Of a stretch of DNA of 64,000 nt, positions 4,008 to 58,871 are shown piece by piece. Each line of letters starts with the position of its first letter. Position 1 is the stretch's first letter. The stretch lies in IMG/VR virus record IMGVR_UViG_3300025137_000016; one strand, given 5' to 3'. The DNA comes from a virus. Under the pieces are notes generated by a model, which saw nothing but the letters and a program-made list of their open reading frames with translations, searched no databases and had not been told where the DNA came from. The translations under genes were made by a program, and so were the position numbers.

Positions 4008-4036
4008 TTGACTTTTAACTTTTTTTCAGATAGAAT
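4008..4036 (+). promoter_or_regulatory. Sigma70-type promoter for the gp41-modification operon
   Basis: TTGACT-17 nt-TAGAAT; ATG at 4044. Confidence 0.8.
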
Positions 4037-4043
4037 ATAAATT

Positions 4044-5438
4044 ATGCGTATTGAAGAAACTATATTAAATAATCTATTACATAATGATGAATACTCACGC
4101 AAGGTGACACCATTCATCAAACCTGAATATTTTGAAGAACGCAATGAGAAGATTATGTTTGAAGAATATACTAAGTTATTCCTACAATATAATAATGTTC
4201 CTAATGCTGAAATGATTGCTAATGAAGTCTTCAATCGTAAAGACTTATATGATAATGATCATAAACTAATTCAGGATGCCATTCTTAAGATGAAAGAGCC
4301 AAATGATGTAAATGAAAACTGGCTCTATGATAAAACTGAAGATTGGTGTAAAGAACGAGCAGTATATAATACTGTAATGGATGCTATCAAAATTATTGAT
4401 GGTCGTGATAAACAACATACCAAAGATGCTATTCCTAAAATGATGCAAGATGCTTTGGGTGTTTGCTTTGATACTTCTGTTGGTCATGATTATCTAGAAG
4501 ACTCCGACTCTCGTTATGAGTTCTATCATAAAGTTGAAGAGAAAATTAAATTTGATATTGAATTATTGAATACTATTACCAGAGGTGGCTTGAGTAAAAA
4601 GACTCTTAATATTGCTATGGCTGGTACAGGTGTTGGTAAATCATTATTTATGTGTCATCATGCTGCATCAGTTTTGGGTGCTGGTATGAATGTTCTTTAT
4701 ATTACTATGGAGATGGCTGAAGAAAAAATCTCTGAAAGGATTGATGCTAACTTATTGAACTTGGGTATGAATGAAATTAAAGTCGTTGACCATGACATAT
4801 TCAGTAAAAGAATTAATAAGATTAAAGATTCTAGTAAAGGTAAATTGATTGTAAAAGAATATCCTACAGGCTCTGCTCACTCTGGTCACTTCAGAGCATT
4901 ACTTGAAGAACTTAAAATGAAAAAAGGTTTCAAGCCAGATATTATCTTTATTGATTATCTTAATATCTGTGCTTCACAAAGATTAAAGATGGGATCTAAT
5001 GTAAACACTTATTCTTACATTAAATCTATTGCCGAAGAACTTAGAGGACTGGCAGTTGAATATAATTGTCCTCTCGTATCAGCTACCCAAACGACAAGAG
5101 GTGGCTTTAATAACACTGATGTTGGTCTAGAAGATACTTCTGAATCTTTTGGTTTACCAGCGACTGCTGATTTAATGTTCGCGATTATTGCTAGTGAAGA
5201 ACTAGACAATATGGGACAGTGGATGATTAAGCAACTGAAGAATAGATATTCAGATCCTAATTATTACAAGCGATTCGTAGTTGGTGTTGATAAGAATAAA
5301 ATGCGATTATATGATGTAGAAGCATCTGCTCAATCAAACATAATGGGATCAGGTCAAGAAAAAAAAGAAGATGATATCGCTGTGTTTGATAAGTCCGATG
5401 CTGGACAGCGATTAAATATGGAAGGATTTAAATTATGA
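4044..5438 (+). CDS. gp41: Replicative DnaB-family helicase
   Basis: AGTGVGKS, IDYLN, ATQTTR, SESFGLPATAD and KNRY motifs. Confidence 0.96.
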   Translation: MRIEETILNNLLHNDEYSRKVTPFIKPEYFEERNEKIMFEEYTKLFLQYNNVPNAEMIANEVFNRKDLYDNDHKLIQDAILKMKEPNDVNENWLYDKTEDWCKERAVYNTVMDAIKIIDGRDKQHTKDAIPKMMQDALGVCFDTSVGHDYLEDSDSRYEFYHKVEEKIKFDIELLNTITRGGLSKKTLNIAMAGTGVGKSLFMCHHAASVLGAGMNVLYITMEMAEEKISERIDANLLNLGMNEIKVVDHDIFSKRINKIKDSSKGKLIVKEYPTGSAHSGHFRALLEELKMKKGFKPDIIFIDYLNICASQRLKMGSNVNTYSYIKSIAEELRGLAVEYNCPLVSATQTTRGGFNNTDVGLEDTSESFGLPATADLMFAIIASEELDNMGQWMIKQLKNRYSDPNYYKRFVVGVDKNKMRLYDVEASAQSNIMGSGQEKKEDDIAVFDKSDAGQRLNMEGFKL

Positions 5439-6736
5439 CAAAAGTGATAACAGCACCAAAGAAGTTTGAATGCGAAGATAAGCTAGGATTATTTGGTGAT
5501 GAAAATGATTATGAATTATTATGTGATTGGGATTGCGACTTTTATGCTCCCACTCCTATGGGTGAAGAAAACTCTGAAGCCAATATTATATTTAAGTTTA
5601 GAAAAAACTGGTTTACTCAAGACCAACAAGATAAAGCATATAATGGTTTGCGTGAAGCAGCAGGTGCCACTGAGAATCGTGGACTCGCAGCAGGTAGTGA
5701 AAAAACAGTTGCTCTAGGAACTAGGGATTGGGTCACTAACTATCACAACGCATTAATACAATATTTTATGTCACCCTCAGCTACTCTTGATGGCTCGGAT
5801 CCTGTTGAAGCAATTCAACTAGAGTATAAAGGTCGTGAGAAGATTGCTGATGACAGTCGTGGTAAAGTGTGGCTCGCACAAAAAGTAGCAGAAGAAGATT
5901 TCGTATTTGATAATTGGGTTGAAGAAATAAGAGGATTGCCTAGAGAGGAAATGGTTAAAGAAGCAACTAGAGTAAATGATAAATTGACCTCTACAACTTC
6001 TTATGCTAATTCAGTGTTCTCAGGTATCGCAGGATTCTTTGATAGATACCCTCGTATTCCTTTTGGTCGTCCTACAACTTTCACTAGAGATAATCCTGAG
6101 AAGTTTGAACAAGGATTCCCTTTCTTACAACAATTATCTAAAGGTTTTGGTGAACTATTGCCAGTCAGGTATGGTAAACAACAGGAAGCATGTAATAAAC
6201 TAGATAATAAATTTATTATTCCTGGAACTGTTTTCACTACTGCTACTGTTAATAAAACATTTAGAACAGCATACCATCGAGACATGGGAGATCTAAATGA
6301 AGGATTCTCTAATCTTACAGTCGTATCAAATAATGGTAAATATTCTGGTGGGTACTTAATACTTCCTGAATATAAAGTTGCTATTAATATTCGTCCAGGA
6401 GATTTATTATTAATTAATAATCATGATGGAATACATGGTAATACACCAATGGTTATGGAAGATGAAAGTGCTGAAAGAATATCTTTCGTATGTTATTTCA
6501 GAGAGAAGATGTTAGAACTAGGAAGCTGGGATTATGAACGAGCTCGTGAAGATTATGTTATTAATCGTAGAACTAATAAAGAACACGTCTTACAAAGACC
6601 ATTATGGAATGGTATTAGTCCTGGGATGTGGGATGAGAAAGAATGGTATGACTTTCTTGAAGATAAACTAGGGAAAGATATTGTATCTAAGTACCACCCT
6701 GACAGTGAAGCTAGTTCTCTAGCAGACTTTTTTTAG
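5435..6736 (+). CDS. TET/JBP-family Fe(II)/2OG dioxygenase (base oxidation)
   Basis: TAYHRD (HxD), GGYLILPEY..GDLLL, HGNTP and RISFVCYFRE motifs; C-terminal SLADFF. Confidence 0.85.
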   Translation: MTKVITAPKKFECEDKLGLFGDENDYELLCDWDCDFYAPTPMGEENSEANIIFKFRKNWFTQDQQDKAYNGLREAAGATENRGLAAGSEKTVALGTRDWVTNYHNALIQYFMSPSATLDGSDPVEAIQLEYKGREKIADDSRGKVWLAQKVAEEDFVFDNWVEEIRGLPREEMVKEATRVNDKLTSTTSYANSVFSGIAGFFDRYPRIPFGRPTTFTRDNPEKFEQGFPFLQQLSKGFGELLPVRYGKQQEACNKLDNKFIIPGTVFTTATVNKTFRTAYHRDMGDLNEGFSNLTVVSNNGKYSGGYLILPEYKVAINIRPGDLLLINNHDGIHGNTPMVMEDESAERISFVCYFREKMLELGSWDYERAREDYVINRRTNKEHVLQRPLWNGISPGMWDEKEWYDFLEDKLGKDIVSKYHPDSEASSLADFF

Positions 6737-6737
6737 T

Positions 6738-7469
6738 ATGAATTATAAAATATTTAAAGACACCTATGTTCGTGAAGTAGATGGCAAAGCTCTAGGAGTT
6801 GATAAGGATATGGTGAACCAATGCCTATCTAATTATTCAAAGTTTGATAATCTTGATGGTGCCATAGTTATGGACTGGGGTATGAATATTGGTGCGTTTG
6901 GAAGAATGCTACTTGATACAAATATAAAACAATATATTGGTGTAGAATGTCATCCTGAAAATTTTGAAGTATGTGAAAAGAATCTAGGGCATGATGAAAG
7001 ATTTTGTTTAATTAATGCTGCAGTCACTACTCAAGATATTCCTGAGATAACTTTATATCTAACAGGAAGTAAACAAGAATTTTGTTCAGGCACTACTAAT
7101 CCAAAAAGTAATGCTGCAAAGAACATGAGAAAAAACCAAGTCAAAGTTCCAACAGTACAAGCACAACAATTATTTGATATTTACCAACCAACACATTTAA
7201 AGTGTGATGTTGAAGGCGAAGAATATCGTATCTTTGAACCAGATTGGTTTATTCCTGAAAGTATCAAACAGATGTCTTTAGAGTTTCACTGGTCAGATAG
7301 AATACTATCAGATTATGAAAGCAATCAACGAGCTAAATTTATTGAGCAAGGTTTCACACCTTTACAAGAACAATTAAATTTAGTCCCAGGAGATAAGCAA
7401 GTAATGTTCTTGGGTGAAGAAGTTAAATACAGAAACATATGGGGTATGGATACTCTATATAAACGATGA
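6738..7469 (+). CDS. FkbM-like class I SAM-dependent methyltransferase
   Basis: DWGMNIGAF motif I, VECHPEN, LKCDVEGEE, LEFH. Confidence 0.8.
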   Translation: MNYKIFKDTYVREVDGKALGVDKDMVNQCLSNYSKFDNLDGAIVMDWGMNIGAFGRMLLDTNIKQYIGVECHPENFEVCEKNLGHDERFCLINAAVTTQDIPEITLYLTGSKQEFCSGTTNPKSNAAKNMRKNQVKVPTVQAQQLFDIYQPTHLKCDVEGEEYRIFEPDWFIPESIKQMSLEFHWSDRILSDYESNQRAKFIEQGFTPLQEQLNLVPGDKQVMFLGEEVKYRNIWGMDTLYKR

Positions 7470-8650
7470 AGTATTTACACACAGATAATAAAGATAAAGA
7501 ATATGTAGATTGGCGACTCCCTGAAAATAGGGAGAAAGGTTTTCTATTATGGTTAGATTGGCGACTAACTTATAATGACCTCGACCATTACATGACAGCC
7601 AACATATTTCGCGATGCTACTGGCGATAAATCCCCTACAAAAAAACCTATGACTGAAGAACAGCGACTCTGGTACTGTTTAATCTTTGGTTGCACCTATC
7701 AAACAGAAATGGCTTGGGCGATATATTGGAACTTTCCAAATCTATTGGAAATTGATTTACAAGAATTAGAAGAATGGAATGTTGAGCATTTAGATAAACA
7801 AAGATATGCTCGTGATACAAAATATAATAAAGGTAGAATTGCTGAACAAGTAAGATCTATGCAACAATTGATTATGCCCTATGGTTCTATTAAAGCATGG
7901 GTAGATAATCAATTAAGAGATAACCCAAGTGAATCCTTTTTTAATATGTATGAGGAAGCACAGAAGATACACAAGTATGGTAGAATGACTACATGGTTAT
8001 TTTGTCAAGCATTAAAAGAAACAGCCGAAGTACCCTTAGAGCCTGACACAATGTTAGCTACTGACAAATCTAACTGGAGTGTTAGATCTGGTCTTTGTTA
8101 TTTAAAAGGTTGGGATAATCTTATTGAAGCCAAAGGTGCGAAGCTCGGAAAAGATGATATGCTGAATGTGGCTGAAGCAGAAAAATATATTTTTGCCAAA
8201 GCTAAAGATAATGTTTCGCCAGAAAATTCTAAAGTGCTTACAAACTTTTTATTAGAATCCCACCTATGTCAATATAAGAAACTAATGCTTGGTGGCGATT
8301 ATGGTGGGCACTCTTCAGGTGATCATTATTCTAGAGGAAGTTTTTTAAAAGAAAAATGGGAGGGTATAGTGAACTATGATGCGTTCTTTGAAGATGCTAT
8401 TACTAAGCATCACCCACTCGTACAGAAAAAAAGGGAAAGTCTTGCCCTAAGAGATTTATGTAAGAAAACAGGTCAAATGATTAACCTTCATCAAGATTAT
8501 GATTTTATGCCAGATATGTATAAGGAAACAGGAATGGATCCTAACTGGTTCTATAACAAGGGTGCTTATGAGAAAGAAGCAGTCAAATGTATAGATGCGT
8601 ATCAGCTAAAGATGAGTGAAGAGAAATTCGGCTTGGAGGTTTACTTTTAA
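7466..8650 (+). CDS. aGPT-PPlase2 / amino-acid:DNA transferase-like protein
   Basis: RLWYCLIFGCTY, YGRMTTW and ESHLCQYKK..YGGH patterns; hypermodification gene context. Confidence 0.7.
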   Translation: MKYLHTDNKDKEYVDWRLPENREKGFLLWLDWRLTYNDLDHYMTANIFRDATGDKSPTKKPMTEEQRLWYCLIFGCTYQTEMAWAIYWNFPNLLEIDLQELEEWNVEHLDKQRYARDTKYNKGRIAEQVRSMQQLIMPYGSIKAWVDNQLRDNPSESFFNMYEEAQKIHKYGRMTTWLFCQALKETAEVPLEPDTMLATDKSNWSVRSGLCYLKGWDNLIEAKGAKLGKDDMLNVAEAEKYIFAKAKDNVSPENSKVLTNFLLESHLCQYKKLMLGGDYGGHSSGDHYSRGSFLKEKWEGIVNYDAFFEDAITKHHPLVQKKRESLALRDLCKKTGQMINLHQDYDFMPDMYKETGMDPNWFYNKGAYEKEAVKCIDAYQLKMSEEKFGLEVYF

Positions 8651-8668
8651 GTTTTTCTAGTATAGAAT
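8640..8668 (+). promoter_or_regulatory. Sigma70-type promoter for ino1-HAD-kinase
   Basis: TTTACT-17 nt-TAGAAT. Confidence 0.8.
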
Positions 8669-8749
8669 TCTTATATATAAATGAAAAGTGTGCTAATCTG
8701 ATCCAGTCAAATCCCACACTCTAATAAACTGATATAAAGGAGAAAAAAT

Positions 8750-10027
8750 ATGTCAAAAATTAAGGTCGCCATTATTGGCACTGGTAATTGTGCAAAGTCG
8801 GTAGTCGAAGGTGTGCAATACTATACTCAAAATCCCCAAGATAAAGTAGGATTAATGTATCCAGATATAGGAGGATACACTGTAGAAGATATCGAATTCG
8901 TTTGTGGTTTCGATGTTGATCCTAGAAAAGTCGGGAAACCATTACAACAAGCATTAAGAGCAGCACCAAACTGTGCCATGCATCATGTATCAGAAATTGA
9001 TGATACTTGTATAGCAAAAGACAGTATGGTATATTCTAGTCCAGAACTAGATGGAGTTGCTTCACACATGCTTGACTATCCAGAAGCAGTATCATTTAGA
9101 ACAGGAGCAGAAACTGCTTTATCTAAAAAACAAGTTGCTCATACTTTAAACTTCCACAAGGTTGATGTTATTATTAACTATCTTCCAGTTGGTTCTGAAA
9201 AAGCAACAGAGTTTTATATAGACGCAGCAGTAATGGCTGGTGTTCATTTTGTAAACTGTATTCCAACTCTTATTGAAACTGAAAAGACTAAAGTCATAGA
9301 ACAGAAGTTCATTGATGCTGGTCTTACTATTGTCGGATCTGATATGAGATCTGCATGGGGTGCTTCTAGATTATCTGAAGTATTACAGGGAGCGATGTTA
9401 GATTCTGGTCTACAAGTGACGCAACATATTCAAATGAATATGGCAGCAGGATCTACACAAGGTCAAGAAACTATTAGAACAGGAAGAACAGCAAATACTG
9501 ACTTCTTAAATATGGCTTATAAAGAAAGATTAAAATCTAAACATATTTCTAAAGAGAATGTTTTAAAAGGTCAGAATCTAGTTAGAGATGAATCTATCGC
9601 AGGTATGACTTTGTATGCTGGTCCAAGTTTAACAGTATTCCAAAAACCTGGAGGAGAATATGTTGGCTCTGATAATAAGATTGCCAATTTAGATATAGTC
9701 GCCTATGGTTTTGGTGGGGCAAGGTATGAATTATCTGCAAGGATGTCAGTACAAGATTCGCCAAACTCTGGAGGTGTAGTTGTATCAGCTATTCGTTTCT
9801 GTAAGGTTGCTTCTGAAATGCAAGTAGTTGGATTCTTAAGAGGTCCATCAGCTTGGACGCAAAAGACTCCACCTGTACAATTAAAAACAGAAGATGCTAA
9901 GTTTGAATGTGATGCATTAGCTAGACGTGAACTTACTAAGATGACTGAACCACAGTTAGTTGTAAACAAACCAAAAGCAAAAGATCTAGCATATACATAT
10001 CAAAAAGGTGAAACTGATTATGAATAG
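8750..10027 (+). CDS. ino1: Myo-inositol-1-phosphate synthase
   Basis: IIGTGNCA Rossmann motif, FDVDPRKVG, NYLPVGS, NTDFLNM, SKHISK, DSPNSGG. Confidence 0.9.
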   Translation: MSKIKVAIIGTGNCAKSVVEGVQYYTQNPQDKVGLMYPDIGGYTVEDIEFVCGFDVDPRKVGKPLQQALRAAPNCAMHHVSEIDDTCIAKDSMVYSSPELDGVASHMLDYPEAVSFRTGAETALSKKQVAHTLNFHKVDVIINYLPVGSEKATEFYIDAAVMAGVHFVNCIPTLIETEKTKVIEQKFIDAGLTIVGSDMRSAWGASRLSEVLQGAMLDSGLQVTQHIQMNMAAGSTQGQETIRTGRTANTDFLNMAYKERLKSKHISKENVLKGQNLVRDESIAGMTLYAGPSLTVFQKPGGEYVGSDNKIANLDIVAYGFGGARYELSARMSVQDSPNSGGVVVSAIRFCKVASEMQVVGFLRGPSAWTQKTPPVQLKTEDAKFECDALARRELTKMTEPQLVVNKPKAKDLAYTYQKGETDYE

Positions 10028-10430
10028 AAGAATCAATACTTTTGATATTGATGGTGTTATCTATATGGGTAAGCACGATGGTGTTTATCCAGGAAAAAGT
10101 GATGTCATTATTACAGGTAGATCTATAGATGAGTGGGATGAAACTACTGCTATGCTACAAGCAAAAGGCATTAAGAATGAAGTCTTTATGAATCCAGCAA
10201 GGTTTGAAAATAAAACTAGACAAGGTTCTGGTATTCATAAAGGCAACATTATAAAAATGTTAAGAGTTCAAAGAGAGATAGAAATAGGAATACATTTTGA
10301 TGACGATCCTATACAAATAAAAGAGATCGAAAGAATAAATCCTGATATCACATGTGTACTATTATCCCATGAATTAGTGGATAAAGAAAACTGTAGACAT
10401 GTAAACTTCTTTGAGTCTGGAGGAGAATAA
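10020..10430 (+). CDS. HAD-superfamily phosphatase
   Basis: FDIDGVI motif I, ITGRS motif II, HFDDD motif IV. Confidence 0.8.
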   Translation: MNRRINTFDIDGVIYMGKHDGVYPGKSDVIITGRSIDEWDETTAMLQAKGIKNEVFMNPARFENKTRQGSGIHKGNIIKMLRVQREIEIGIHFDDDPIQIKEIERINPDITCVLLSHELVDKENCRHVNFFESGGE

Positions 10431-11005
10431 TGATTATAGCAATTGGTGGAGAACCAGCAACAGGTAAATCTACATTGATGAAACAATGGATGAAAGATTA
10501 TACTTGGGATGATGTCAAGTGTACAGATCTATTATATGGTATGCACTGTCAAGAGCTGAATACTATTGTTCTCGGAAAAGACTATTTCAATGAAGAACAG
10601 ATGTTCTGTGGTACTGATAGACTATCAATGGCAGTACAACCTAAAGCCATTGAGTGGTTTAAAACCTCATACAAGCCATCTGGGGTTAATATCGTATTTG
10701 AGGGAGATAGGTTGTTTAGTGCTTCATTTCTTGGCGAAATGACCTCTCAGGGACACGATATACGCATCATTTACATAAAGGCAGACCAAAGTACCCTAGA
10801 CGAAAGACATGTCTCCAGGAACGATAATCAGGACGATAAGTTCCTAAAATCAAGGAAAACCAAGCTATCTAACATATTATCCAACTTCGAGCTTATGCCC
10901 TACATTGAAGAGTTTACAAATAATACAATTGAAGATCAGTCGGTCTTAGTGGAATTAATCTTAAAGGAACTAAATAGTAGTGATGGCAAAATGGTACAGG
11001 GATAA
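10430..11005 (+). CDS. P-loop nucleotide kinase of the type found in base-modification loci
   Basis: GGEPATGKST Walker A, GTDRLSM, FEGDRL. Confidence 0.75.
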   Translation: MIIAIGGEPATGKSTLMKQWMKDYTWDDVKCTDLLYGMHCQELNTIVLGKDYFNEEQMFCGTDRLSMAVQPKAIEWFKTSYKPSGVNIVFEGDRLFSASFLGEMTSQGHDIRIIYIKADQSTLDERHVSRNDNQDDKFLKSRKTKLSNILSNFELMPYIEEFTNNTIEDQSVLVELILKELNSSDGKMVQG

Positions 11006-11543
11006 GGCAACCATTTCAGTACGAGGTGGCGATGCTCCAACTAGAAAACTCATAAGAGAGATGGCACACTATTGTGCTAAAAAACTTATGACTGTTCAAC
11101 TCCGAACTCAAGTCACAATAAATTTCGTAATTACAAAAGACCTTTACTTAACTGAAAAGGTCCAAGGACTATCTTGGATTGATTGCGAAGAATATCGTCC
11201 AAAGAAATTTAAAATACAAGTAGAACACGAATCCAAATTAAGACCTTTATTAGAAACTGTAGCACATGAGATGGTACATATAAAACAATGGGCATCTGGT
11301 GATATGTATGAATATTCAGATGGTAATAGAACTCGCTACAAAAAGAAACAATATAATAATCAAAAAATAGATTATTGGGATTCGCCATGGGAAGTAGAAG
11401 CACATGGTAAAGAGGTTGGTCTATTTGTTCGTTTTTGTGAAGATGAGGGTTATAAAGATGAGAAGTGGGCAAAGGTCGATTTCTTAAAACCTGAATATGC
11501 AAAAAGAATCGCAAAACATATAAAAGCAAAAAGAAAAAAATAG
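10983..11543 (+). CDS. Zinc metallopeptidase-like protein
   Basis: AHEMVH (HExxH) plus PWEVEA; late promoter CTAAATA at 10970. Confidence 0.7.
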   Translation: MAKWYRDKATISVRGGDAPTRKLIREMAHYCAKKLMTVQLRTQVTINFVITKDLYLTEKVQGLSWIDCEEYRPKKFKIQVEHESKLRPLLETVAHEMVHIKQWASGDMYEYSDGNRTRYKKKQYNNQKIDYWDSPWEVEAHGKEVGLFVRFCEDEGYKDEKWAKVDFLKPEYAKRIAKHIKAKRKK

Positions 11544-11546
11544 TCC

Positions 11547-11579
11547 TTTACTTTTGTTCAAAAATAGTTAGAATAAATA
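11547..11579 (+). promoter_or_regulatory. Overlapping sigma70-type and late-type promoters
   Basis: TTTACT-16 nt-TAGAAT overlapping ATAAATA. Confidence 0.6.
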
Positions 11580-11584
11580 GTATT

Positions 11585-12997
11585 ATGGCAAATATATTTA
11601 AAGATAAATATCCCACAGGTCACAAGGTCGTGATCAAAGACAGGCAAGGCTTAACCAAAGTCGGTCCCATCATTCCTAGCATTATCACTCAAGCAAAAGC
11701 AAACATCAATCCAGGAAGTACTGTATTTGAATTAGAGAAAACAAGATTTACTAATTTAAAATATGAAATAAATCTTTCTAAATCTGGTGTTGCTCAAGAA
11801 ATATATATGAGGAAGAGTGGTCACCTGTATAAGTTCATTGGTTCTAAAAGTGTATTAGAAGGTATCTTCAGTCATGCTGGTGATGGAACTTCAGCAAAAT
11901 CTGATACGAATTCTAAAACTGAATGCCAAGAATTAGTGTCTTTACATTTATTCGAGCAAAAATTAAAGTTTGGAAAAGATCAAGATTATGATTATATCGA
12001 ATCATGCCTGCCTACTAAATTAAGAAAGTTCTTTAATGAAGATTTCTATGAAAGTGCTAAAAAACAACTAGCACTATTCCTCAGCAAACACCCCAAGCTA
12101 TTCACAGGTCCAGGATTCATATTTGAATTACAACTAGCCAGTCCTGCAACAAAAAGAATATATGCTAATGCTCTAAAGTTATCTAAACTGAATAAGGATA
12201 ACTGGAATCCAGCTGATATGTGGATCGTGAGTAAGAGTTTAGATTATGATGTTTATGAAACTGCCACTGATATCCAATCAGTTAATAAACAACTAATCGC
12301 AGATTATCAAGCTGGACTTCTAGTTGGAATATCTCTAAAGAAAATCTTGCCAGGACAATTAGGTCAGATACAATTTATTAATACCTCGGAAACAAAAAAG
12401 AAAGAAACTAAATTTGATTTCAGTTTTGAGTTAAATGCTTTGACAGGAAGATCAAAAGCCAAAGATAAAATTAATGGTAATGCTTTTAATAACTTTATCA
12501 TCTACACAAAATCAGGCTTTGGTATTCGTGGTGGGTTTAAAGCATCATCAACAACTTATAGTGTATCACTAGAGGGAAGATTTAAAAACTCTGGTTCACA
12601 GGTTGGTGGTATGGATGCTAAAGTTGTACCCAAAGAATTTGTTAAGAGATATGGATATACATTAAGACAGGGTGGCATTCCTAATATTAAAGCAGAAGAA
12701 AAAATAGCATTACAAGAAATGAAAGAGATCTATGCAAAACATGGTGACAAGGTATCAGTATCAACAGACATGAATACCTATGCTGACTTTCTAAAAGTTT
12801 ACAAAGGTGCGAATGATTTTGAGAAACAAAGATTGTGTCGTATCTCTTCTATGCTATATCCATTCATGGTATTGGCTTTTAATAAGCCGAAGAAGAAACA
12901 GAAGCAGACTGAATTTGAAAATTTAATGGACTGGAGTTATTCCCTAGCGAAGAAAGAAACAGCAGTTGGTGGCTTCTATGTCATCGTAAAACCATAA
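11585..12997 (+). CDS. Putative PD-(D/E)xK restriction-fold nuclease
   Basis: QE helix, DNWNPADMW and GISLKK motifs; very basic protein. Confidence 0.55.
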   Translation: MANIFKDKYPTGHKVVIKDRQGLTKVGPIIPSIITQAKANINPGSTVFELEKTRFTNLKYEINLSKSGVAQEIYMRKSGHLYKFIGSKSVLEGIFSHAGDGTSAKSDTNSKTECQELVSLHLFEQKLKFGKDQDYDYIESCLPTKLRKFFNEDFYESAKKQLALFLSKHPKLFTGPGFIFELQLASPATKRIYANALKLSKLNKDNWNPADMWIVSKSLDYDVYETATDIQSVNKQLIADYQAGLLVGISLKKILPGQLGQIQFINTSETKKKETKFDFSFELNALTGRSKAKDKINGNAFNNFIIYTKSGFGIRGGFKASSTTYSVSLEGRFKNSGSQVGGMDAKVVPKEFVKRYGYTLRQGGIPNIKAEEKIALQEMKEIYAKHGDKVSVSTDMNTYADFLKVYKGANDFEKQRLCRISSMLYPFMVLAFNKPKKKQKQTEFENLMDWSYSLAKKETAVGGFYVIVKP

Positions 12998-15299: not shown

Positions 15300-18200
15300 A
15301 TGAAAGACTTTAAAACACTTCTTAATGAAGTGCCTAGCAAAAAAATAGTTATCGGCTTTGGCAGGTTTAATCCACCAACGACTGGTCATGAATTGCTTAT
15401 TAATAAAGTCACCCAATATGCTCGTAGCAAAGGCAGTCCTGCCAAAATCTATGTCACTCATACTGAGGACAACAAAAAAAATCCATTAAAACAAGCACGC
15501 AAGATCTATTACATGAAAAGAATGTTTGGACAGAATGTTCCATTAGTCGGAACTAAAGCACCTGACCAAAGAACAATAATAGAAGTTGCCAAGCATCTTA
15601 ATACTGTAGACAAGATTAATGAAATAACTCTTATTGCTGGTAGCGATAGAATTGCTGAGTATAAAAGATTGCTTAACAAATACAATGGTAAAGATTTCAA
15701 TTTTGACAAGATAACAGTTTTATCATCAGGTCGTAGAGATCCTGACTCTGATATGGCTGAAGGAATGTCAGCAACTAAAATGAGAACTGCTGCTACTTCT
15801 GGTAAATTTACTGACTTTAAAAAAGGTGTACCAAGAAGAATGACTATCGCTGATAGCAAAAGACTATTCAACGAAGTTAGAAAGGGCATGGGACTACCAC
15901 CTATAAGAGAAGAAGTAGTTCTACCAACTTCTCAATTAAGAGAAGATTATGTTGCTAAGAAAATATTTAATATTGGTTCAGTAGTAGAAGATGACAAAGG
16001 TGTCTACGAAGTTATGGACCGAGGAGCAAATTATATAAGTGTTTCTGATGAAGATGGAAATGTAAACAAAAAATGGCTACATGAAGTCCGACAGATATCA
16101 GAACAAAATATTGTGAACGATTACCATTCTGAAGACGAACTTAAATACAAAGGATTCGTCACTGAAAATTTACATAATTTTTATGAAATTAAAGACAAGT
16201 TTCTAGACCTATTCGAATCTGATAAAGATCCTGTTGCTGTTCTTACTTGTTTAAAACTAGTTGATCAATCATGTAAGATCTTAGAGGACGCAAGACATCG
16301 AGGATATGCACTATTAGAAGAAGCAGGTGCTGATTCCATTATAAAAATGAAACTGACAGACAGCCTAAATAGTATTAGCGAGTTTGATCAGCACAATTAT
16401 ATTGATGCGATAAATGCCGACTTGGCAGACTTATTAGCTAAGGAACCAAATATGAAACAAGACATTAAAGAGCAGAAAAATCTTAAGATAGATCCTGCCA
16501 ATAAATTCAGATTTACTTCTGCCGACAGAATTAAAGTCGCTAGAATTATTGCTGGCTCATTGGGTGTAGACAATCCTGAGAAGATGTCTAATCCAACTCA
16601 ACTTATTAATTATGGTCTTAGAAAATTAAGATCTAAAAGAGTGACTCCAGAGTTTGCTGATATTGTTAAAAAGATGCTAGTGACAGCTAAGACTGCAGGC
16701 ATCGATTATGATAGACAATATTTACCACCACTAATGAAGACAGGTAGATTTGCTGTAGAAAGTAAATCCTTCACGCAATTCGTAAAAGAAGTTTCAGGTT
16801 CTGGTGTAGATCCTATCGTATTACAACTAAGAAAAAATATTAATCTAAAAGGCAATTACACTTTTGAGTTTAGAGATGGCTCTAAAGGTAAGATGTCTCC
16901 AGGAGCATCTGAAGGAATCTTAAACAAATACGATGCACTTCGTAGACCTAATCAAAAATTGAATGTATCTAATCCTATGGGTAAATCAATGAACTCTTTA
17001 AAAGATACATTGAAGAACTGGGACGCAGTTGCTAATAAAGAAAAGAAAGCAGCAGTTGGTGCAGATGGTAAAAAGAAAACAGGTAGAGATGAGCCACTTC
17101 GTGGATTAAAGAATCCTATGGATGAAATGTTTACTGAAGCCGATCTACCAGAAGCATGGGTAAAAACTGAAGCTGATCTAGAGAAGTTTTGGAAAACAAA
17201 AACTGAAGATGTAAAAGCTACTAAAGAAAGAATTACAAAAGAAAAAGAAGCTGATAAAATGAAGCATGATAAAATGATGGATCGTGCTAGAACTCAACAA
17301 GCTAGAAAAAAGAATATTGAAACAAAACCTTCTATCAAAAAAGAAGAGTATTATAATGTCGTATATAAAGGCAAAGACGGAAAGCCAGAGTCAGGTAAAG
17401 AAAAAAGATTTGGCGATAAAGAAGCTGCAAAAAAATATGCCAAGCAAGGTAATACCATTAACACTGTTGGTGGTAAGTATCATGTATATAAAGTAGATGA
17501 AGAGTCTGAAGGCACAGATGGAACAATGGGTGTTGGTGCTGATGTCACTCGTAAAGTAAGACAAGGCTTAAGAGCTGATCTTATGATGAGAATGACTAGA
17601 GTTAAAGATAAAATGTCTAAAGCTGAAAAGGGTTCTAAAGAGTTTCAAGAATTATATGCTGAGTACAAAAAATGTAAAGGTATGATGCAAAGTCTCCCAG
17701 GGAAAAAGGGTGCTAATGAAGAAAAGATTTGGGAAGTAAAAAGACCAAGTGTTGATGTAGTAGATACTAATAGCAATTATAATATGGCGAAGTCTATTAT
17801 GTCGTTTGACGATTACAAAAAAATGTTGAAACTTGCTGGTGGTATTGAAAAGCGAGATGAAACTGGTCAGATGGAATCTCAAAAAAAAAGAATTAAGGAC
17901 GAGCAACGATTTAAGTTTGAAGAAGATGTTGCAGTCAAACAAGCTAACGATCTAGCAAAAGGCACTGAGCAGGAAATGACTCCTGAGCCTGAAGATAAAC
18001 CTAAAGCATCAAAGATTAAAAAGAAATCAGGAACACCAAAGTCGGATGATCCTTATGACTTAGAAATATTTGTAGCAGATCCTAAAGCTGACGCAATGCT
18101 AGATAATCTCGACGATAAAGAGATTGATAAAGTTGTTGCTATGTTTAATGCTGACGAAGATCCTATGAATTCTAAGTTAGATATTTTTGATTTATATGAC

Positions 18201-18758
18201 GATGAAGAATTAGCAATAGAAGTAGAGGATGAAGATGAAGAAATCTCTATGGAAGAATTTGAAGTTGAAGAAAATGCTGAACAATTAAATGAAGTATTAT
18301 CTAGAACTGAAAGAATCAAAGCTAGAGTTAGAGTGCGAAGAACTAAAGCACGTCGTTCAAGAGCTGTTAAGATTGCACTTCGTAGACACTCATCTACACA
18401 AGTAATAAATAGTAGAGCAAGACGATTAGCTGTTAAGCTATTAAAAAGAAGATTCTTTAAGAAAGCTCCAAGCCAATTATCAGTTGGTGAAAGAGAAAGA
18501 GCTGAAGCAAGAATCGCTAAGATGCGTCATGTAGTAAAAAGAATTGCTTTGAAGTTAGCACCTAAAGTAAGGCAGATGGAAAAGAAAAGATTGCACGGCA
18601 GAAAATCTGGTGGGGCAAAATTCAAATCTGCATTAAAAGGTGGACGAATTAATACTAACAGACAAGCTGGTCGTAAGACTAAAGGTAATACAGTTGGACA
18701 AAGAGCCAGAGCTGGTAAAGGTTATGGTGGAAAGACAGGAAAGAAATATGGTGGTTAA
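15300..18758 (+). CDS. Cytidyltransferase-like (HxGH) domain fused to a long charged, probably virion-internal region
   Basis: FGRFNPPTTGH, AGSDR and MSATKMR motifs; late promoter CTAAATA at 15244. Confidence 0.75.
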   Translation: MKDFKTLLNEVPSKKIVIGFGRFNPPTTGHELLINKVTQYARSKGSPAKIYVTHTEDNKKNPLKQARKIYYMKRMFGQNVPLVGTKAPDQRTIIEVAKHLNTVDKINEITLIAGSDRIAEYKRLLNKYNGKDFNFDKITVLSSGRRDPDSDMAEGMSATKMRTAATSGKFTDFKKGVPRRMTIADSKRLFNEVRKGMGLPPIREEVVLPTSQLREDYVAKKIFNIGSVVEDDKGVYEVMDRGANYISVSDEDGNVNKKWLHEVRQISEQNIVNDYHSEDELKYKGFVTENLHNFYEIKDKFLDLFESDKDPVAVLTCLKLVDQSCKILEDARHRGYALLEEAGADSIIKMKLTDSLNSISEFDQHNYIDAINADLADLLAKEPNMKQDIKEQKNLKIDPANKFRFTSADRIKVARIIAGSLGVDNPEKMSNPTQLINYGLRKLRSKRVTPEFADIVKKMLVTAKTAGIDYDRQYLPPLMKTGRFAVESKSFTQFVKEVSGSGVDPIVLQLRKNINLKGNYTFEFRDGSKGKMSPGASEGILNKYDALRRPNQKLNVSNPMGKSMNSLKDTLKNWDAVANKEKKAAVGADGKKKTGRDEPLRGLKNPMDEMFTEADLPEAWVKTEADLEKFWKTKTEDVKATKERITKEKEADKMKHDKMMDRARTQQARKKNIETKPSIKKEEYYNVVYKGKDGKPESGKEKRFGDKEAAKKYAKQGNTINTVGGKYHVYKVDEESEGTDGTMGVGADVTRKVRQGLRADLMMRMTRVKDKMSKAEKGSKEFQELYAEYKKCKGMMQSLPGKKGANEEKIWEVKRPSVDVVDTNSNYNMAKSIMSFDDYKKMLKLAGGIEKRDETGQMESQKKRIKDEQRFKFEEDVAVKQANDLAKGTEQEMTPEPEDKPKASKIKKKSGTPKSDDPYDLEIFVADPKADAMLDNLDDKEIDKVVAMFNADEDPMNSKLDIFDLYDDEELAIEVEDEDEEISMEEFEVEENAEQLNEVLSRTERIKARVRVRRTKARRSRAVKIALRRHSSTQVINSRARRLAVKLLKRRFFKKAPSQLSVGERERAEARIAKMRHVVKRIALKLAPKVRQMEKKRLHGRKSGGAKFKSALKGGRINTNRQAGRKTKGNTVGQRARAGKGYGGKTGKKYGG

Positions 18759-40775: not shown

Positions 40776-41891
40776 ATGAAATTCGCTTTACCATTAACTG
40801 TATTGTTCATGCTTGTACTATGCTCTCAAGAAGTGAAAGCAAGTATAGGAGAAGTGACACTACATGAAGGCAACGGAAGTATTGAAAGAAAAACTAATGG
40901 CGAATCTGTCACTACTGAAAAAGAAGTAGATGTATTCAGTTATGATACAGTTAAAACTGGAAATGGTAAAACTGCTATTGAGTTTATTGACGATACCAGA
41001 GTTGATGTCACAAGTCATAGTAAATTAGTCATTGATGAATTTGTTTACGATCCTAATACTAAGACAGGAAAGTTATCATTAAAAGCTAGTCTCGGAACAA
41101 TAAGATATGCTTCTGGTCAGATAGCAAAAAACTCAGCAACAGATGTAAATATTACTACTCCAACAGCAACCATTGCTGTAAGGGGAACTGACTTCACTAT
41201 GACTGTAGATGAGGTTGGGTCTTCTACTATTATATTATTACCAAGTTGTGATACCACAGGTGCTTGTTATGTAGGGGAGATAGCTGTAGAATCTGATGCT
41301 GGATTTGTAATATTAAACCAAGCATTCCAGGCAACAGTAGTTGATACAATATCAAGTCAACCTATGAAGCCAGTGATACTAAATTTAGATGAGGAGATGA
41401 TTGGTAATTTATTAATAGTATCTAAACCAAGAGAGATAGCAGAAGAACAATCTAGGGAAGATTCGTATAACCAAGTTGCTAGTGCATTAGATATAGATTT
41501 TTTACAGTTTGATGATTTAGAAATAGATTACTTAGAAGATGAAGAAGATACTTGGTCAACTGGATTAGATATAGATTTTTTAGAACAAAATTTTCTAGTA
41601 GATATTTTGGCTCAGATAAATAAAGAACTTGCTAAAGCTATGCGAAGCGAGTTTGATAAGAAAAAATCAACTAGTAATGTTCAATTAGGGAAAGACCCTG
41701 TCACTGGTATTATAATTTTAGATGAAGATCCTCAATGGGTTTATTCTAGAGAAGGTGCAGGAAACTTTTTTGAATTAAGATTAGATAAGGAATATGGCTA
41801 TGTCATTTCATTTACACAAAACGATTTTCAAATTATGGATTACGAACTAGGAGGAGCAGAAAATGTTATCGACATTCTTCAAAATCAGTAG
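40776..41891 (+). CDS. FecR-domain exported protein
   Basis: Signal peptide; D.VKTG, F.DDT, and ITTPTATIAVRGTDF. Confidence 0.85.
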   Translation: MKFALPLTVLFMLVLCSQEVKASIGEVTLHEGNGSIERKTNGESVTTEKEVDVFSYDTVKTGNGKTAIEFIDDTRVDVTSHSKLVIDEFVYDPNTKTGKLSLKASLGTIRYASGQIAKNSATDVNITTPTATIAVRGTDFTMTVDEVGSSTIILLPSCDTTGACYVGEIAVESDAGFVILNQAFQATVVDTISSQPMKPVILNLDEEMIGNLLIVSKPREIAEEQSREDSYNQVASALDIDFLQFDDLEIDYLEDEEDTWSTGLDIDFLEQNFLVDILAQINKELAKAMRSEFDKKKSTSNVQLGKDPVTGIIILDEDPQWVYSREGAGNFFELRLDKEYGYVISFTQNDFQIMDYELGGAENVIDILQNQ

Positions 41892-43677: not shown

Positions 43678-43944
43678 TGCCTTTAAAGAAGGGATAGCAT
43701 AATGTACTTTATTATTACAGCATGGCTCACACTATATTCTGGTCCAGCAATACATCACGAGTTGAATACAATACAGTTTGAAGACACCTGGCAGTGTCAT
43801 GAATACATTGCAGAAAACAAGATGGCATTGCTCTTACCTCATATTGAAACTTATGGCGATGATCTAAAAGGGTTTGAATTCTACTGTGAAAACAGGTGGA
43901 ATGATTAATGTCTAAAATTTTTACGCATTGGACTAGTGCCTTTA
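43670..43944 (+). repeat. 16-bp direct repeat TGGACTAGTGCCTTTA flanking an inserted gene
   Basis: Copies at 43670-43685 and 43929-43944. Confidence 0.85.
43702..43908 (+). CDS. Small two-Cys hypothetical protein
   Basis: Hydrophobic N-terminus; F....C..Y...C pattern. Confidence 0.6.
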   Translation: MYFIITAWLTLYSGPAIHHELNTIQFEDTWQCHEYIAENKMALLLPHIETYGDDLKGFEFYCENRWND

Positions 43945-45746
43945 TAACTGTTGCCATCCTGGCAATTATAGGATTCGCAAATCCTGACTTCAAAGAAATA
44001 ATTAAACTAAAGTCTTTCGACTTTTTACTTGCGTCTGAAGAACAAACCTTTTCAGATGATATAGTAATAGTTGAAATAGATGAACAGACCATAGATAAAC
44101 TTGGTCAATATCCTTTTGCTAGAACTCACTATGCAGATCTAATAGACAAGCTAAGAATTGCTGGGGCAGGTGTAATAGTATTCCCAATATTATTCTCGGA
44201 AGAAGATAGAGAAGGTGGTGATGATTTATTTAAGAATTATCTAACTGCAGGAACTGTTATTGCTCAGCTAGGAACTAATGATATTAATAAGAATGGTGTA
44301 CCAAGAGGTGTAGCTAAGATTGGCGATCCCTTACCTTATCTATTTGAATGGGGTGGTATGCTTGGACCAATACCTGAACTTGGACAATCAGCAAATGGTG
44401 TAGGTGTTGTTAATACTGCACCAGAGTTAGATGGAGTTGTTCGTAGAGTACCACTATTGATGAGGATAGGTGAAGATGTATATCCTAGTATTGCCATAGA
44501 GGTTATTAGAGTTGCAGTAGGTGACCCATCGTATCAAGTTAAAGCAGGTGTTGCTGGTATTCAAGCTATGAGGGTTCCAGGATTCGCTACTATTGAAACT
44601 GATGCTAATGCTAGAATATGGTTGAGACATAACAAAGAATATCATACTATCTCAATGATAGATATCGAAGAAGAATTAAATGAACTATTAATATTTGGTA
44701 AGACTGTTATCGTATCACCAACTGCTGCTGGGATTTCAAATATAATTGCTACACCAAGAGGTGAACAGTATTCACATTATATAACTGCTTCAACTTTAGA
44801 TACAGTATTATCTGGTGAGCAAATAACTCGAGTAGATTATCTACCATTGCTTGAATTACTTGCTATGGTAGTTTGGGCAGTAATAACTATATTGGCTTGT
44901 AGATTTTTACCATACGCATGGTTGGCAGTTTACTTAGCGACTATTATAATTGCTGCAGGAGTAAAAGCATATCTAGCATTTACTTGGTATGGTTGGCTGA
45001 TAGATGTATCTTGGTTTATTATCGCAATGTTCTTAGTAGGATTTCATTCTACCTTTACTAGATTTATATTAGAGTTTAATCTAAAACAACAAATAAGAAA
45101 ACAGTTTGAAAGATACTTAGATCCTAGACAAGTTGCTATCTTACAAAAAGATCCTAGCAAATTAAAACTTGGTGGTGAGAAAAGAGAGATGAGTTTCTTG
45201 TTTATGGATATAGTTGGCTTCACACCTATATCAGAATTCTTTAAAAACAATGACGATCCCGAAGGATTAGTAGAACTGATTAATGATTATCTAAATCGTA
45301 TGAGTAAGATCGTTATGAATAATGGTGGCACCATAGATAAATATATGGGCGATTGTATTATGGCTTTCTGGAATGCTCCATTAGATTGTGAGGATCACGC
45401 AGAGATGGCAGTCAAGACTAGTATAGAGTGTGCCATAGAAACTGAAGAATTGAAAAAGATGTACAAAGAAAAAGGTTTGCCTGAGATTAATATTGGTTCA
45501 GGAGTAAATACTGGAACTTGTATTGTAGGCAATATGGGTAGTGAGATGAGATTTGATTATTCAGTTATTGGTGATGCAGTAAATCTTGCTGCTAGATTAG
45601 AAGCCCAGACTAGAAACTATGATAACTGTACCACATTATATTCACAGTACACCAAAGATGCCCTAAATAATATCAAGTCAAAAGAACTTGACAAGATAAA
45701 AGTAAAAGGAAAAGAAGAACTCATAACCATATACGAGCCATGTTAG
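43908..45746 (+). CDS. CHASE2-domain class III adenylate cyclase
   Basis: IVIVEIDE..LGQYPF.R and DGVVRRVP (CHASE2), three TMs, FMDIVGFT, DKYMGD, IGDAVNLAARLE. Confidence 0.92.
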   Translation: MSKIFTHWTSAFITVAILAIIGFANPDFKEIIKLKSFDFLLASEEQTFSDDIVIVEIDEQTIDKLGQYPFARTHYADLIDKLRIAGAGVIVFPILFSEEDREGGDDLFKNYLTAGTVIAQLGTNDINKNGVPRGVAKIGDPLPYLFEWGGMLGPIPELGQSANGVGVVNTAPELDGVVRRVPLLMRIGEDVYPSIAIEVIRVAVGDPSYQVKAGVAGIQAMRVPGFATIETDANARIWLRHNKEYHTISMIDIEEELNELLIFGKTVIVSPTAAGISNIIATPRGEQYSHYITASTLDTVLSGEQITRVDYLPLLELLAMVVWAVITILACRFLPYAWLAVYLATIIIAAGVKAYLAFTWYGWLIDVSWFIIAMFLVGFHSTFTRFILEFNLKQQIRKQFERYLDPRQVAILQKDPSKLKLGGEKREMSFLFMDIVGFTPISEFFKNNDDPEGLVELINDYLNRMSKIVMNNGGTIDKYMGDCIMAFWNAPLDCEDHAEMAVKTSIECAIETEELKKMYKEKGLPEINIGSGVNTGTCIVGNMGSEMRFDYSVIGDAVNLAARLEAQTRNYDNCTTLYSQYTKDALNNIKSKELDKIKVKGKEELITIYEPC

Positions 45747-47257: not shown

Positions 47258-47292
47258 AAGGGGAGTTCGATCATCAGTATTGGCTCCCCTTT
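47258..47292 (+). terminator. Rho-independent terminator-like hairpin
   Basis: AAGGGGAG...CTCCCCTT followed by a T-rich tract. Confidence 0.6.
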
Positions 47293-57659: not shown

Positions 57660-58210
57660 ACATATTTGTTCTTCACCCACATCCAGTAGTATCTGCAAAG
57701 CAACACTGTGATAAACATGTGGTGAAGATGATATTAGAAACTGCTCAACTTTTATCTACTGCCCATCGACTATTAGATGGTGTACAAGATTTAAGAGAAT
57801 CAAGTACAGGTAAGACCCAAACAAAGTATTGGGAACTTCCTGATAACAATATGGAGGGAACTCTTTATCGTGCTACTATGATGAACCATCCTTGTGCTAT
57901 ATGGTGTAGGGAATCTGATGCTAATTATACTTGGGCATATAATTTATTTGCAGGACTATGTGATGAATACACTCATCGTTATGGTAAAGTACATAAAACA
58001 GATATGTTATTAAGAGAAGCATTATTTGAGACACCAAAAAATATACCAAAGAAGATTGGATTAACTCCATTCAAACAAGCGATGCCTGAAGATGTAAAAC
58101 ATAATGATAGCATTCAAGCCTATCGTCAATATTATTTAAAATACAAAGCATCATTTGCTAAGTGGACAAACAGAGAGGTACCAGATTGGTATGCCAGCAA
58201 AACTAATTAA
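57656..58210 (+). CDS. Pyrimidine-dimer DNA glycosylase (DenV-family)-like protein
   Basis: MNIF.L, DKHVVKMILE.AQLLS, NHPCAIW, EY..RYGK.H and QAMP. Confidence 0.75.
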   Translation: MNIFVLHPHPVVSAKQHCDKHVVKMILETAQLLSTAHRLLDGVQDLRESSTGKTQTKYWELPDNNMEGTLYRATMMNHPCAIWCRESDANYTWAYNLFAGLCDEYTHRYGKVHKTDMLLREALFETPKNIPKKIGLTPFKQAMPEDVKHNDSIQAYRQYYLKYKASFAKWTNREVPDWYASKTN

Positions 58211-58871
58211 TTATTCGAAAGGTGAACATGGAGACTTATTACAAGAAGTTGCATTCTGTGCAAGAGTTTCTAATCCTAGCAACCAAGCGAGTCAAGAAAC
58301 GAGTGAAAAATTACTCAACTATTTAATGAAACATAAACACTGGTCGCCATTTGAAATGGTATCAGTATGTATAGAAATTAAAACTACCAGAGATATTGGT
58401 AGACAGATACTAAGACATAGAAGTTTTTCCTTCCAGGAATTTAGTCAAAGGTATGCTGAAGCAAATGAATACACTACTCGTGAAGCTAGAGAACAAGATA
58501 CTAAGAACAGACAAAACTCTACCGAGTTTGAAGATCGTGAAATTGTTGAATGGTTTAACATGCAACAAATGAAATTAATAAAAGGAGTGAAGGACTTATA
58601 TACAGAAGCACTCGGCAAAGGTATAGCCAAAGAACAGGCTAGAGCTATATTGCCTGAGGGTATGACGCAAAGTACATTATATATGAATGGTACACTAAGA
58701 TCTTGGATGCATTATATTGATCTAAGAACTGAGAATGGTACTCAAAAGGAGCATATGATTATTGCTCACGAATGTGCTAAAGCTATTGAACCAGTGTTTC
58801 CTATGATTAAAGACTTTAATAATTATGAAAAGGATCAAGATAATCAAGAAATCTGGAGAAAATATATCTAG
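58191..58871 (+). CDS. thyX: Flavin-dependent thymidylate synthase
   Basis: HWSPFE, RHRSFSFQEFSQRY, EQARAILP and TQKEH. Confidence 0.95.
   Translation: MPAKLINYSKGEHGDLLQEVAFCARVSNPSNQASQETSEKLLNYLMKHKHWSPFEMVSVCIEIKTTRDIGRQILRHRSFSFQEFSQRYAEANEYTTREAREQDTKNRQNSTEFEDREIVEWFNMQQMKLIKGVKDLYTEALGKGIAKEQARAILPEGMTQSTLYMNGTLRSWMHYIDLRTENGTQKEHMIIAHECAKAIEPVFPMIKDFNNYEKDQDNQEIWRKYI

Follow-up and report, generated by a model that had tools for sequence, protein, structure and literature searches.

The stretch of viral DNA analysed here, 64,000 nucleotides of IMG/VR record IMGVR_UViG_3300025137_000016 and hereafter called the window, comes from an uncultured marine T4-like phage and carries a cluster of genes directly behind the gene of a gp41-like replicative helicase, and this cluster plausibly encodes a post-replicative system of thymidine hypermodification whose cyclitol donor would be made by the phage itself. 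All of the genes lie on the + strand. The helicase gene (4044..5438; Pfam DnaB_C, 2.1e-17; phrog_19, 8.8e-127) is followed by six open reading frames (ORFs) encoding a TET/JBP-family 2-oxoglutarate (2OG)/Fe(II) dioxygenase of the 5mYOX group (5435..6736; Pfam Tet_JBP, 1.6e-21; phrog_24024, 2e-160), an FkbM-family S-adenosylmethionine methyltransferase (6738..7469; Pfam Methyltransf_21/FkbM, 1.2e-6), a DNA transferase of the AADT or aGPT-Pplase2 family (7466..8650), a homologue of myo-inositol-1-phosphate synthase (Ino1 or MIPS; 8750..10027; Pfam Inos-1-P_synth, 1.5e-9), a capless (C0) phosphatase of the HAD superfamily (10020..10430, within an ORF that opens with a GTG at 10008), and a P-loop kinase (10430..11005; Ploopntkinase3, Pfam PF18751, 6.3e-9). 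From the helicase to the kinase, the successive junctions are a 4-nt overlap, a 1-nt gap, a 4-nt overlap, a 99-nt gap, a 20-nt overlap and a 1-nt overlap; the fifth of these, between Ino1 and HAD, shrinks to 8 nt if the phosphatase begins at the ATG at 10020, a start that fits its homologues. An ORF check of the window bore out the sequence-only reading from which this work began, in which the six genes had been placed at these positions, coupled to gp41 and mostly overlapping one another. The six enzyme assignments also hold, each through a Pfam match or, for the HAD, through motifs and fold, with catalytic residues intact, and all four of the profile searches suggested there (Tet_JBP, ADDT, Ploopntkinase3 and Inos-1-P_synth) returned matches. 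A megablast search of the phage collection found no near-identical DNA.

The dioxygenase scores 76.6 bits against the Tet_JBP hidden Markov model (HMM; PF12851, cut-off 34.9), and its iron triad (H281-x-D283 and H334) and 2OG-binding R348 are invariant in seven homologues of 46-88% identity; the enzyme also has a conserved N-terminal region of about 200 residues. It is predicted to oxidise thymine in DNA to 5-hydroxymethyluracil (5-hmU). The kinase retains a Walker A motif of the form G-x-P-x-T-G-K and is predicted to be a 5-hydroxymethyldeoxyuridine (5-hmdU) DNA kinase; in the loci surveyed below, a PF18751 kinase always accompanies TET and AADT genes. The FkbM protein (PF05050; 29.2 bits against a cut-off of 22.7) is best viewed as an optional tailoring enzyme, possibly one that O-methylates the cyclitol, and its gene is confined to loci arranged like the window (L004-L016) and to two loci of the hydroxymethylcytosine type. 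Sequence searches of the PDB gave no match for the dioxygenase, FkbM protein, kinase, AADT or HAD; the AADT and the HAD were placed by fold searches only.

In the sequence-only reading, the proposal would have been refuted if the product of 7466..8650 were not a homologue of the aGPT-PPlases. It is one by Pfam match (ADDT, PF18724; 5.6e-20, 72.5 bits against a cut-off of 26.2, with an HMM validated on ViI and Cr30), by catalytic residues and by fold. E264 and C268 are invariant and align with the essential Glu and Cys of ViI gp247 (ETSGAC) and M6 gp51 (ETVLC); Ser265 is also part of the intact active site, in which, by comparison with PUGT, both the Glu/Thr(Ser) pair that binds metal and the Cys that bonds covalently are retained. 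An AlphaFold2 (AF2) model (predicted local distance difference test score, pLDDT, 76.5) matches the crystal structure of PUGT, the 5-PmdU glycinyltransferase of phage PaMx11 (8Z2M_A), which has an HhH-glycosylase-like fold, with a Z-score of 16.5 and a root-mean-square deviation of 3.7 Å over 255 residues. The next matches are DUF2419 (Z 10) and HhH DNA glycosylases (Z 7-8), and the best Foldseek match is 8Z2N. The enzyme should displace the phosphate of 5-phosphomethyldeoxyuridine (5-PmdU) with a nucleophile.

The identity of that nucleophile is addressed in part by the donor pocket. In the structure of PUGT, glycine is held by Asp24, Trp146 of an FGPW motif and Lys150 (PMC11472151). When the pocket is mapped through M6 gp51, as opposed to gp46 itself, YGRMTTWL of the window protein aligns with FGPWIGFK; Trp146 is replaced by Met174 and Lys150 by Leu178, the DLD motif is kept, and an amino-acid donor pocket of the PUGT type is not found. 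The window segment GRMTTWL resembles GRLSAWN of ViI gp247, a member of the family that uses a hydroxyl nucleophile. As read from these residues, the pocket argues against glycine and would be compatible with an oxygen nucleophile, and it does not fix the identity of the donor. The AADT also looks like the most exchangeable gene of the module, through either allele replacement or fast evolution, as its identity is 89% in L004-L007 and about 40% in L008-L016, with the flanking TET, Ino1 and kinase genes at 79-88%. The identity of the HAD also falls in L008-L016, to about 62%.

Residues 3-386 of the Ino1 homologue align with residues 15-360 of Mycobacterium tuberculosis Ino1 (1GR0) at 2e-53 (185 bits; phmmer against the PDB), and the second relative in the PDB is a five-membered cyclitol-phosphate synthase (6K96; 4.8e-28, 101 bits). 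The Inos-1-P_synth model (PF01658) scores 38.4 bits against a cut-off of 27, and across 67 unique homologues the motifs GSDMRS, SDNK, QDSPNS and TQKTPP show conservation of 95% or more. D197, K284, D310 and K346 of the mycobacterial enzyme, which we take to be essential active-site residues, all align with identical residues of the window protein and fall within these conserved motifs. A 15-residue insertion beside the active-site region is conserved in the phage clade. The enzyme is proposed to make inositol phosphate from glucose-6-phosphate. Its neighbour, the HAD ORF of 140 residues, drew no match from Pfam with the E-value limit relaxed to 1, and was recognised from motifs I-IV (D13-I-D15-G-V, T36 of ITGR, K78 and D99-D100), which are invariant in 30 aligned homologues, and from a match to polynucleotide kinase/phosphatase family phrog_415 (2.2e-8). 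The AF2 model of the HAD (pLDDT 88.6) shows the Rossmannoid fold of the superfamily and has as its best fold match the 3'-phosphatase of T4 Pnkp (5UJ0; TM-score 0.53), followed by lipin/LNS2, the KDO8P phosphatase YrbI and MDP-1, all of them capless and all with modest TM-scores; a capless fold of this kind would suit a free sugar phosphate and a DNA-bound phosphate alike.

ThyX, a flavin-dependent thymidylate synthase, is encoded at 58155..58871 (+ strand; Pfam Thy1, 7.5e-42) and carries the RHRxxS motif, here RHRSFSFQEFSQRY. Within the 64-kb window, phmmer found no homologue of the ThyA-family, C5-methyltransferase-like, HMUDK, dCMP-deaminase or glycosyltransferase proteins of related loci. 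Pfam HMMs found no PF00303, PF00145 or ParB in two related sequences (131 kb and 117 kb), which share genes of about 90% identity with the window and are 65-73% complete, and the complete genome of Cr30 has a canonical ThyA as its sole ThyA-family enzyme and lacks a C5-methyltransferase. The initial observation that ThyX occurs in the window with neither a dUMP hydroxymethylase nor a C5-methyltransferase is thus sustained, by phmmer in the window and by Pfam HMMs in its relatives. On this gene content, the phage is taken to make ordinary dTMP through ThyX, with thymine entering DNA before it is modified, and because no pre-replicative hydroxymethylase or C5-methyltransferase was found, thymine is the likely substrate of the dioxygenase. 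The ParB family (PF02195) is absent from the 131-kb and 117-kb relatives, Cr30 and RP13, the window not having been scanned with this model; there is no ParB-like ORF between gp41 and DUF6267 in the window, and the co-encoded ParB that marks a ParB-dependent subclass of T-dioxygenases was not found. Full-length TET proteins of the same clade (45-50% identity) also occur in the cultured phages DLP6 (L084 8001-9347) and C48C1 (L085 7908-9326), which are without AADT, PF18751 kinase and Ino1 and probably decorate 5-hmU differently; in C48C1, the TET gene is followed by two hypothetical genes for proteins of about 340 residues.

The strongest evidence that Ino1 and HAD belong with these DNA-modifying enzymes comes from their neighbourhoods elsewhere. 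A scan of IMG/VR returned 169 relatives, and 80 loci together with three cultured phages were examined. The Ino1 and HAD genes stand side by side in 73 of 82 loci. Where at least 4 kb of sequence is available on each side (27 loci), the HAD is present in 26, and a DNA-transferase candidate and a kinase are both present in 24. Three architectures recur. That of the window, shared with L004-L016 and Cr30, has a TET dioxygenase as the source of the hydroxymethyl group, an AADT as the transferase and a PF18751 kinase (seven well-flanked loci). The commonest (11 well-flanked loci), typified by L050 and L020, has as its source the protein family c5, which is 54% identical to the T4 gp42 dCMP hydroxymethylase, together with the candidate transferase family c4 and an HMUDK_hel kinase. 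The third, found in RP13, L029, L032 and L033, combines an AADT with an HMUDK kinase and has no hydroxymethyl source visible in the flank (two well-flanked loci). The partner genes of Ino1-HAD are non-homologous between architectures, and it is this recurrence with equivalent but non-homologous partners that most strongly argues for Ino1-HAD working with the kinase/transferase step.

The neighbourhood survey called for in the sequence-only reading has therefore been answered in favour of tight linkage between Ino1-HAD and kinase/DNA-transferase pairs of several non-homologous kinds. The co-occurrence of ino1 with aGPT-PPlase that it proposed to survey stands, and hydroxymethylcytosine and 7-deazaguanine contexts occur as well; judging by gene context, Ino1-HAD appears to be linked to DNA-modification islands in general and not to the AADT specifically. 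The L050 (8458-14875) and L020 (8564-15092) clusters comprise the hydroxymethylase, a dCMP deaminase, a small ORF that is DUF6552 or UDG-like, Ino1, HAD, the HMUDK_hel kinase, c4 and a 400-residue C5-methyltransferase-like protein. The c4 protein is fused to HMUDK in phrog_17781; as a candidate AADT homologue it was rejected (profile-profile probability 0.5%), and it gives a sub-threshold hint of similarity to T4 beta-glucosyltransferase (E 0.044). Some TET/AADT/Ino1 clusters also hold glycosyltransferase-like genes (L067 6847-7986, L002 5943-6869 and L033 6915-7826), of the GT4 type with a Glycos_transf_1 match at 1e-7 or of family c41, which weakly matches the PHROG of T4 alpha-glucosyltransferase. 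These genes suggest that Cr30-like phages may go on to glycosylate the adduct.

The analysis shows which genes are present, their catalytic residues, their folds and their conserved association; from these we infer every substrate and product in the scheme that follows, to which we assign a probability of roughly 55%. The phage would replicate with ordinary thymine, ThyX supplying the dTMP, and the TET/JBP dioxygenase would then convert selected thymines in DNA to 5-hmU. The P-loop kinase would phosphorylate the hydroxymethyl group to give 5-PmdU. The AADT would flip the base out of the helix, Cys268 would attack C6, the phosphate would be expelled and a nucleophile would add to the exocyclic methylene. 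That nucleophile would be a hydroxyl of myo-inositol, with Ino1 converting glucose-6-phosphate to inositol phosphate and the HAD removing the phosphate, either before transfer or afterwards on the DNA. The FkbM enzyme may O-methylate the product. The expected 5-(inosityl-oxymethyl)-dU nucleoside would have the formula C16H24N2O11 and a calculated monoisotopic mass of 420.138, with an increment of 14.016 if methylated. An ether formed through a hydroxyl has a precedent in O-serinyl-T (PMC8989533), and the cluster is without the pyridoxal phosphate (PLP)-dependent, radical-SAM, FAD or acetyltransferase tailoring genes of the known amino-acid pathways. This is in outline the route from TET through 5-hmU and a kinase to inositol transfer that had been put forward from sequence; its enzyme identities, the choice of thymine as the likely substrate and the linkage to Ino1-HAD are upheld, and the transfer of inositol itself stays conditional. 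More tentatively, and at something short of even odds, a wider claim can be framed, in which the DNA of T4-like marine and freshwater phages, among them the cultured phages Cr30 (Caulobacter) and RP13 (Ralstonia), bears a carbocyclic polyol, myo-inositol, which in the window phage may be O-methylated, joined by an ether bond to the C5-methyl group of pyrimidines, by way of a portable Ino1-HAD module that serves at least two non-homologous kinase/transferase systems, for 5-hmU and hydroxymethylcytosine, and perhaps 7-deazaguanine.

Several points weigh against this proposal. The attachment of inositol to DNA is a prediction from genes, and hydroxyl groups of cyclitols are poor nucleophiles beside amines. 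The MIPS family includes makers of other cyclitols, as 6K96 illustrates. Pairwise identity among the Ino1-linked AADTs is only 17-52%, and they form no obvious single clade. The kinase belongs to a different family from those verified, and here the initial assignment needs qualifying: it is a P-loop kinase as proposed, but matches PF18751 only, whereas the verified 5-hmdU DNA kinases M6 gp54 and ViI gp243 belong to PF18748 and PF18747, respectively. None of the hallmarks of the 5-HMUDK family (PF18748, PF18747 or the PF18723 helical domain) was found in it, its BLAST match to M6 gp54 (E 0.23) is confined to the P-loop, and hhalign gives a probability below 1% against the HMUDK-type families c2 and c53. 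The survey counts overstate independence because the loci come from related phages; what can be counted as independent is the set of three or four architectures. Lastly, in Stenotrophomonas phage Moby (L003 6207-11621) and in L047 (9959-19680), Ino1-HAD is inserted into a 7-deazaguanine cluster, with FolE on one side and QueC (QueC/DpdA/QueE) on the other, and the complete Moby genome has no AADT, HMUDK, PF18751 kinase, ThyA-family gene or TET homologue; Ino1-HAD does not, on this showing, need 5-hydroxymethylpyrimidine chemistry. The Moby and L047 loci raise the question of an inositol-linked deazaguanine or of a more general role for the pair.

Moby-like phages, which keep Ino1-HAD without pyrimidine-modification genes, lend support to the alternative that survives best, in which the window encodes an ordinary thymidine hypermodification with a cellular amino acid or polyamine, and Ino1-HAD, as an auxiliary metabolic module without relation to it, makes inositol that serves the physiology of the host, signalling or some other target and is merely lodged in the early-gene region. 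Ino1 also has a promoter-like motif of its own (described below), the authors of the Ps15 study regarded the gene as a bacterial-type acquisition, and the characterised AADTs all use amino acids or putrescine (PMC8989533). Set against this are the embedding of Ino1-HAD among genes for DNA modification in three or more types of cluster that are not homologous, and in the 24 of 27 well-flanked loci given above, its absence from TET phages that lack an AADT, the absence of amino-acid tailoring enzymes from the cluster and the loss of the glycine-binding residues of PUGT from the window AADT; even in Moby, Ino1-HAD sits inside a DNA-modification operon. On balance we regard an unrelated module as unlikely, and favour a phage-made cyclitol donor.

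The cyclitol might also be attached in another order or by another chemistry, with inositol phosphate transferred first and then dephosphorylated on DNA by the HAD, or with Ino1 making a cyclitol other than myo-inositol. The HAD, at about 130 residues, is capless and lies near the fold of the T4 Pnkp DNA 3'-phosphatase, with an open active site that would suit large substrates, but small sugar phosphates are also substrates of capless HADs, KDO-8-P phosphatase and HisB-N among them. Similarly, 6K96 as second PDB relative and the phage-clade insertion by the active-site region would be in keeping with a different cyclitol, yet the synthase is much closer in score to genuine Ino1 than to 6K96 and keeps the Ino1 motifs, and such variants seem to us rather improbable. 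That the dioxygenase acts on 5-methylcytosine and the pathway decorates cytosine is very improbable, for although many phage TET/JBP enzymes oxidise 5-methylcytosine and the commonest Ino1-HAD context, with its gp42-like c5, is hydroxymethylcytosine-based, no C5-methyltransferase was found in the window, the 117-131 kb relatives or the complete Cr30 genome, a C5-methyltransferase accompanies just 6% of the 5mYOX pathways of phages, and it is with T-dioxygenase clade C1 that AADT and P-loop kinases are partnered (PMC13229309).

The cluster is probably transcribed as two units. A promoter-like motif (TTGACTTTTAAC...ATAGAAT), found with a custom pattern, lies upstream of gp41 at 4008..4036, and a copy near-identical to those at 4008 and 47290 lies at 8640..8668, in the 99-nt gap before Ino1. 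Further copies are at 11547-11574, ahead of the ORF at 11585, and at 47290-47318 and 56431-56459. The shared form, TTTACTTTTAAGTTTTT…ATAGAAT (TT[G/T]ACTTTT...TAGAAT), occurs in five + strand copies, each intergenic, against about 0.5 expected in shuffled sequence; scans for sigma-70 promoters and terminators in the window gave background levels only. From its distribution, the motif is probably an early or middle promoter of this phage. Because a conserved copy sits in the gap before Ino1, the module probably consists of two transcription units, gp41-TET-FkbM-AADT and Ino1-HAD-kinase-o187, and not of one.

The last member of the second unit extends the cluster beyond the six genes first counted. 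This ORF, o187 (10983..11543, + strand; phrog_10499), overlaps the stop codon of the kinase, is translationally coupled to it and encodes a protein with an HExxH motif (HEMVH, within VAHEMVH) and no Pfam match. Its feature neighbours in the protein atlas are named SprT-like (0.97), which serves as a lead only, and it is kept, at 70-74% identity, in window-type loci only. Speculatively, o187 could be a DNA-protein-crosslink protease that guards against stalled AADT intermediates held covalently through Cys. The next ORF, o470 (11585-12997, 470 residues), evolves fast, with only about 30% identity between relatives whose neighbouring genes stand at 70-90%; it has no Pfam match, its protein-atlas neighbours are labelled 'putative virion protein', and it was rejected as a member of the module on its absence from Cr30, L063 and L067. 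Farther downstream, a 1152-residue ORF (15300-18758) without a Pfam match has 300 N-terminal residues that match PHROG 'cytidyltransferase' families (4.5e-62); as a candidate CDP-inositol activator it was rejected, having no Pfam support and no linkage to Ino1 in other contexts. Elsewhere the window encodes a FecR-domain protein (40776-41891) and a fusion protein (43908-45746) in which a CHASE2 sensor domain (1e-40) is combined with the catalytic domain of an adenylate/guanylate cyclase (3e-19).

Sugar decorations of DNA use nucleotide-sugar glycosyltransferases, and to our knowledge the thymidine hypermodifications that proceed through 5-phosphomethyl-dU all carry amino acids or polyamines. 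If the proposal is correct, the window would encode the first cyclitol-modified nucleobase, a new class of DNA base that is isobaric with base J and joined through a chemically acid-stable ether, and would widen the donor range of the AADTs, which are useful for enzymatic labelling of DNA, from amino acids and polyamines to polyols. It could also explain why abundant phages of the ocean resist restriction enzymes and sequencing chemistries. In marine metagenomes the gene family is very common, some 8,000 relatives being found at E <= 1e-20. Cr30, grown on Caulobacter crescentus, offers a cultured system for a direct test. In full-text literature searches, inositol and cyclitols were nowhere linked to a DNA base and turned up only in irrelevant mentions, in agreement with the initial statement that no cyclitol-modified base is known to have been described, and phage papers annotate the Ino1 gene without comment on its function.

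The backbone of TET dioxygenase, kinase and AADT is a published architecture, and the Ino1-HAD pair is the undescribed part. TET/JBP T-dioxygenases linked to P-loop kinases and AADTs have already been described in phages, with HAD and O-methyltransferase domains among the families that co-occur with them and with no mention of an inositol-phosphate synthase (O'Toole et al. 2026, PMC13229309). The clade C1 pathways of that study share all three backbone enzymes with the window, and many clade C1 dioxygenases have a ParB partner, which neither the window relatives nor Cr30 possess. The chemistry of kinase and then transferase on 5-hmdU is established, with the essential Glu and Cys identified by mutagenesis in M6 gp51 and ViI gp247 (Lee et al. 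2021, PMC8989533). In the 5-NeOmdU pathway of Salmonella phage ViI (the 5-hmdU DNA kinases gp67/gp243, the serine:DNA transferase gp247 and the PLP decarboxylase gp226; PMC8989533), 5-hmdU is activated in DNA by a kinase and then acted on by a Glu/Cys AADT, as proposed for the window, and gp247 forms an ether by adding a nucleophile through its hydroxyl; the GRLSAW segment of gp247 is the counterpart of GRMTTW. ViI differs in that its 5-hmU comes from hmdUTP, as against a post-replicative TET in the window, and in its PLP decarboxylase, in place of which the window has Ino1, HAD and FkbM, along with a PF18751 kinase and an AADT only 19% identical to gp247. The glycine:DNA transferases PaMx11 gp46 (PUGT) and M6 gp51 (8Z2M; PMC11472151) have the same fold as the window AADT at about 14-21% identity, and the window protein carries about 75 additional residues, a helical region, at its C-terminus.

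Two systems from outside the phages complete the comparison. Base J of kinetoplastids, formed by JBP1/2 and a glucosyltransferase, resembles the proposed pathway in its post-replicative conversion of thymine to 5-hmU and subsequent addition of an O-linked C6 polyol, and its glucosyl-hmdU is isobaric with the nucleoside predicted for the window. It is made by a nucleotide-sugar glycosyltransferase and is a glycosidic acetal, whereas the window system would use phosphate activation and a Cys-covalent transferase to form an ether to a carbocycle. M. tuberculosis Ino1 is homologous to the window protein over its full length, with a shared NAD-binding N-terminus and shared active-site motifs, and differs from it in lacking the 15-residue insertion and in its shorter C-terminus (367 residues in total compared with 425). 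The mycobacterial enzyme serves the synthesis of mycothiol or phosphatidylinositol, whereas the context of its relative in the window is DNA modification.

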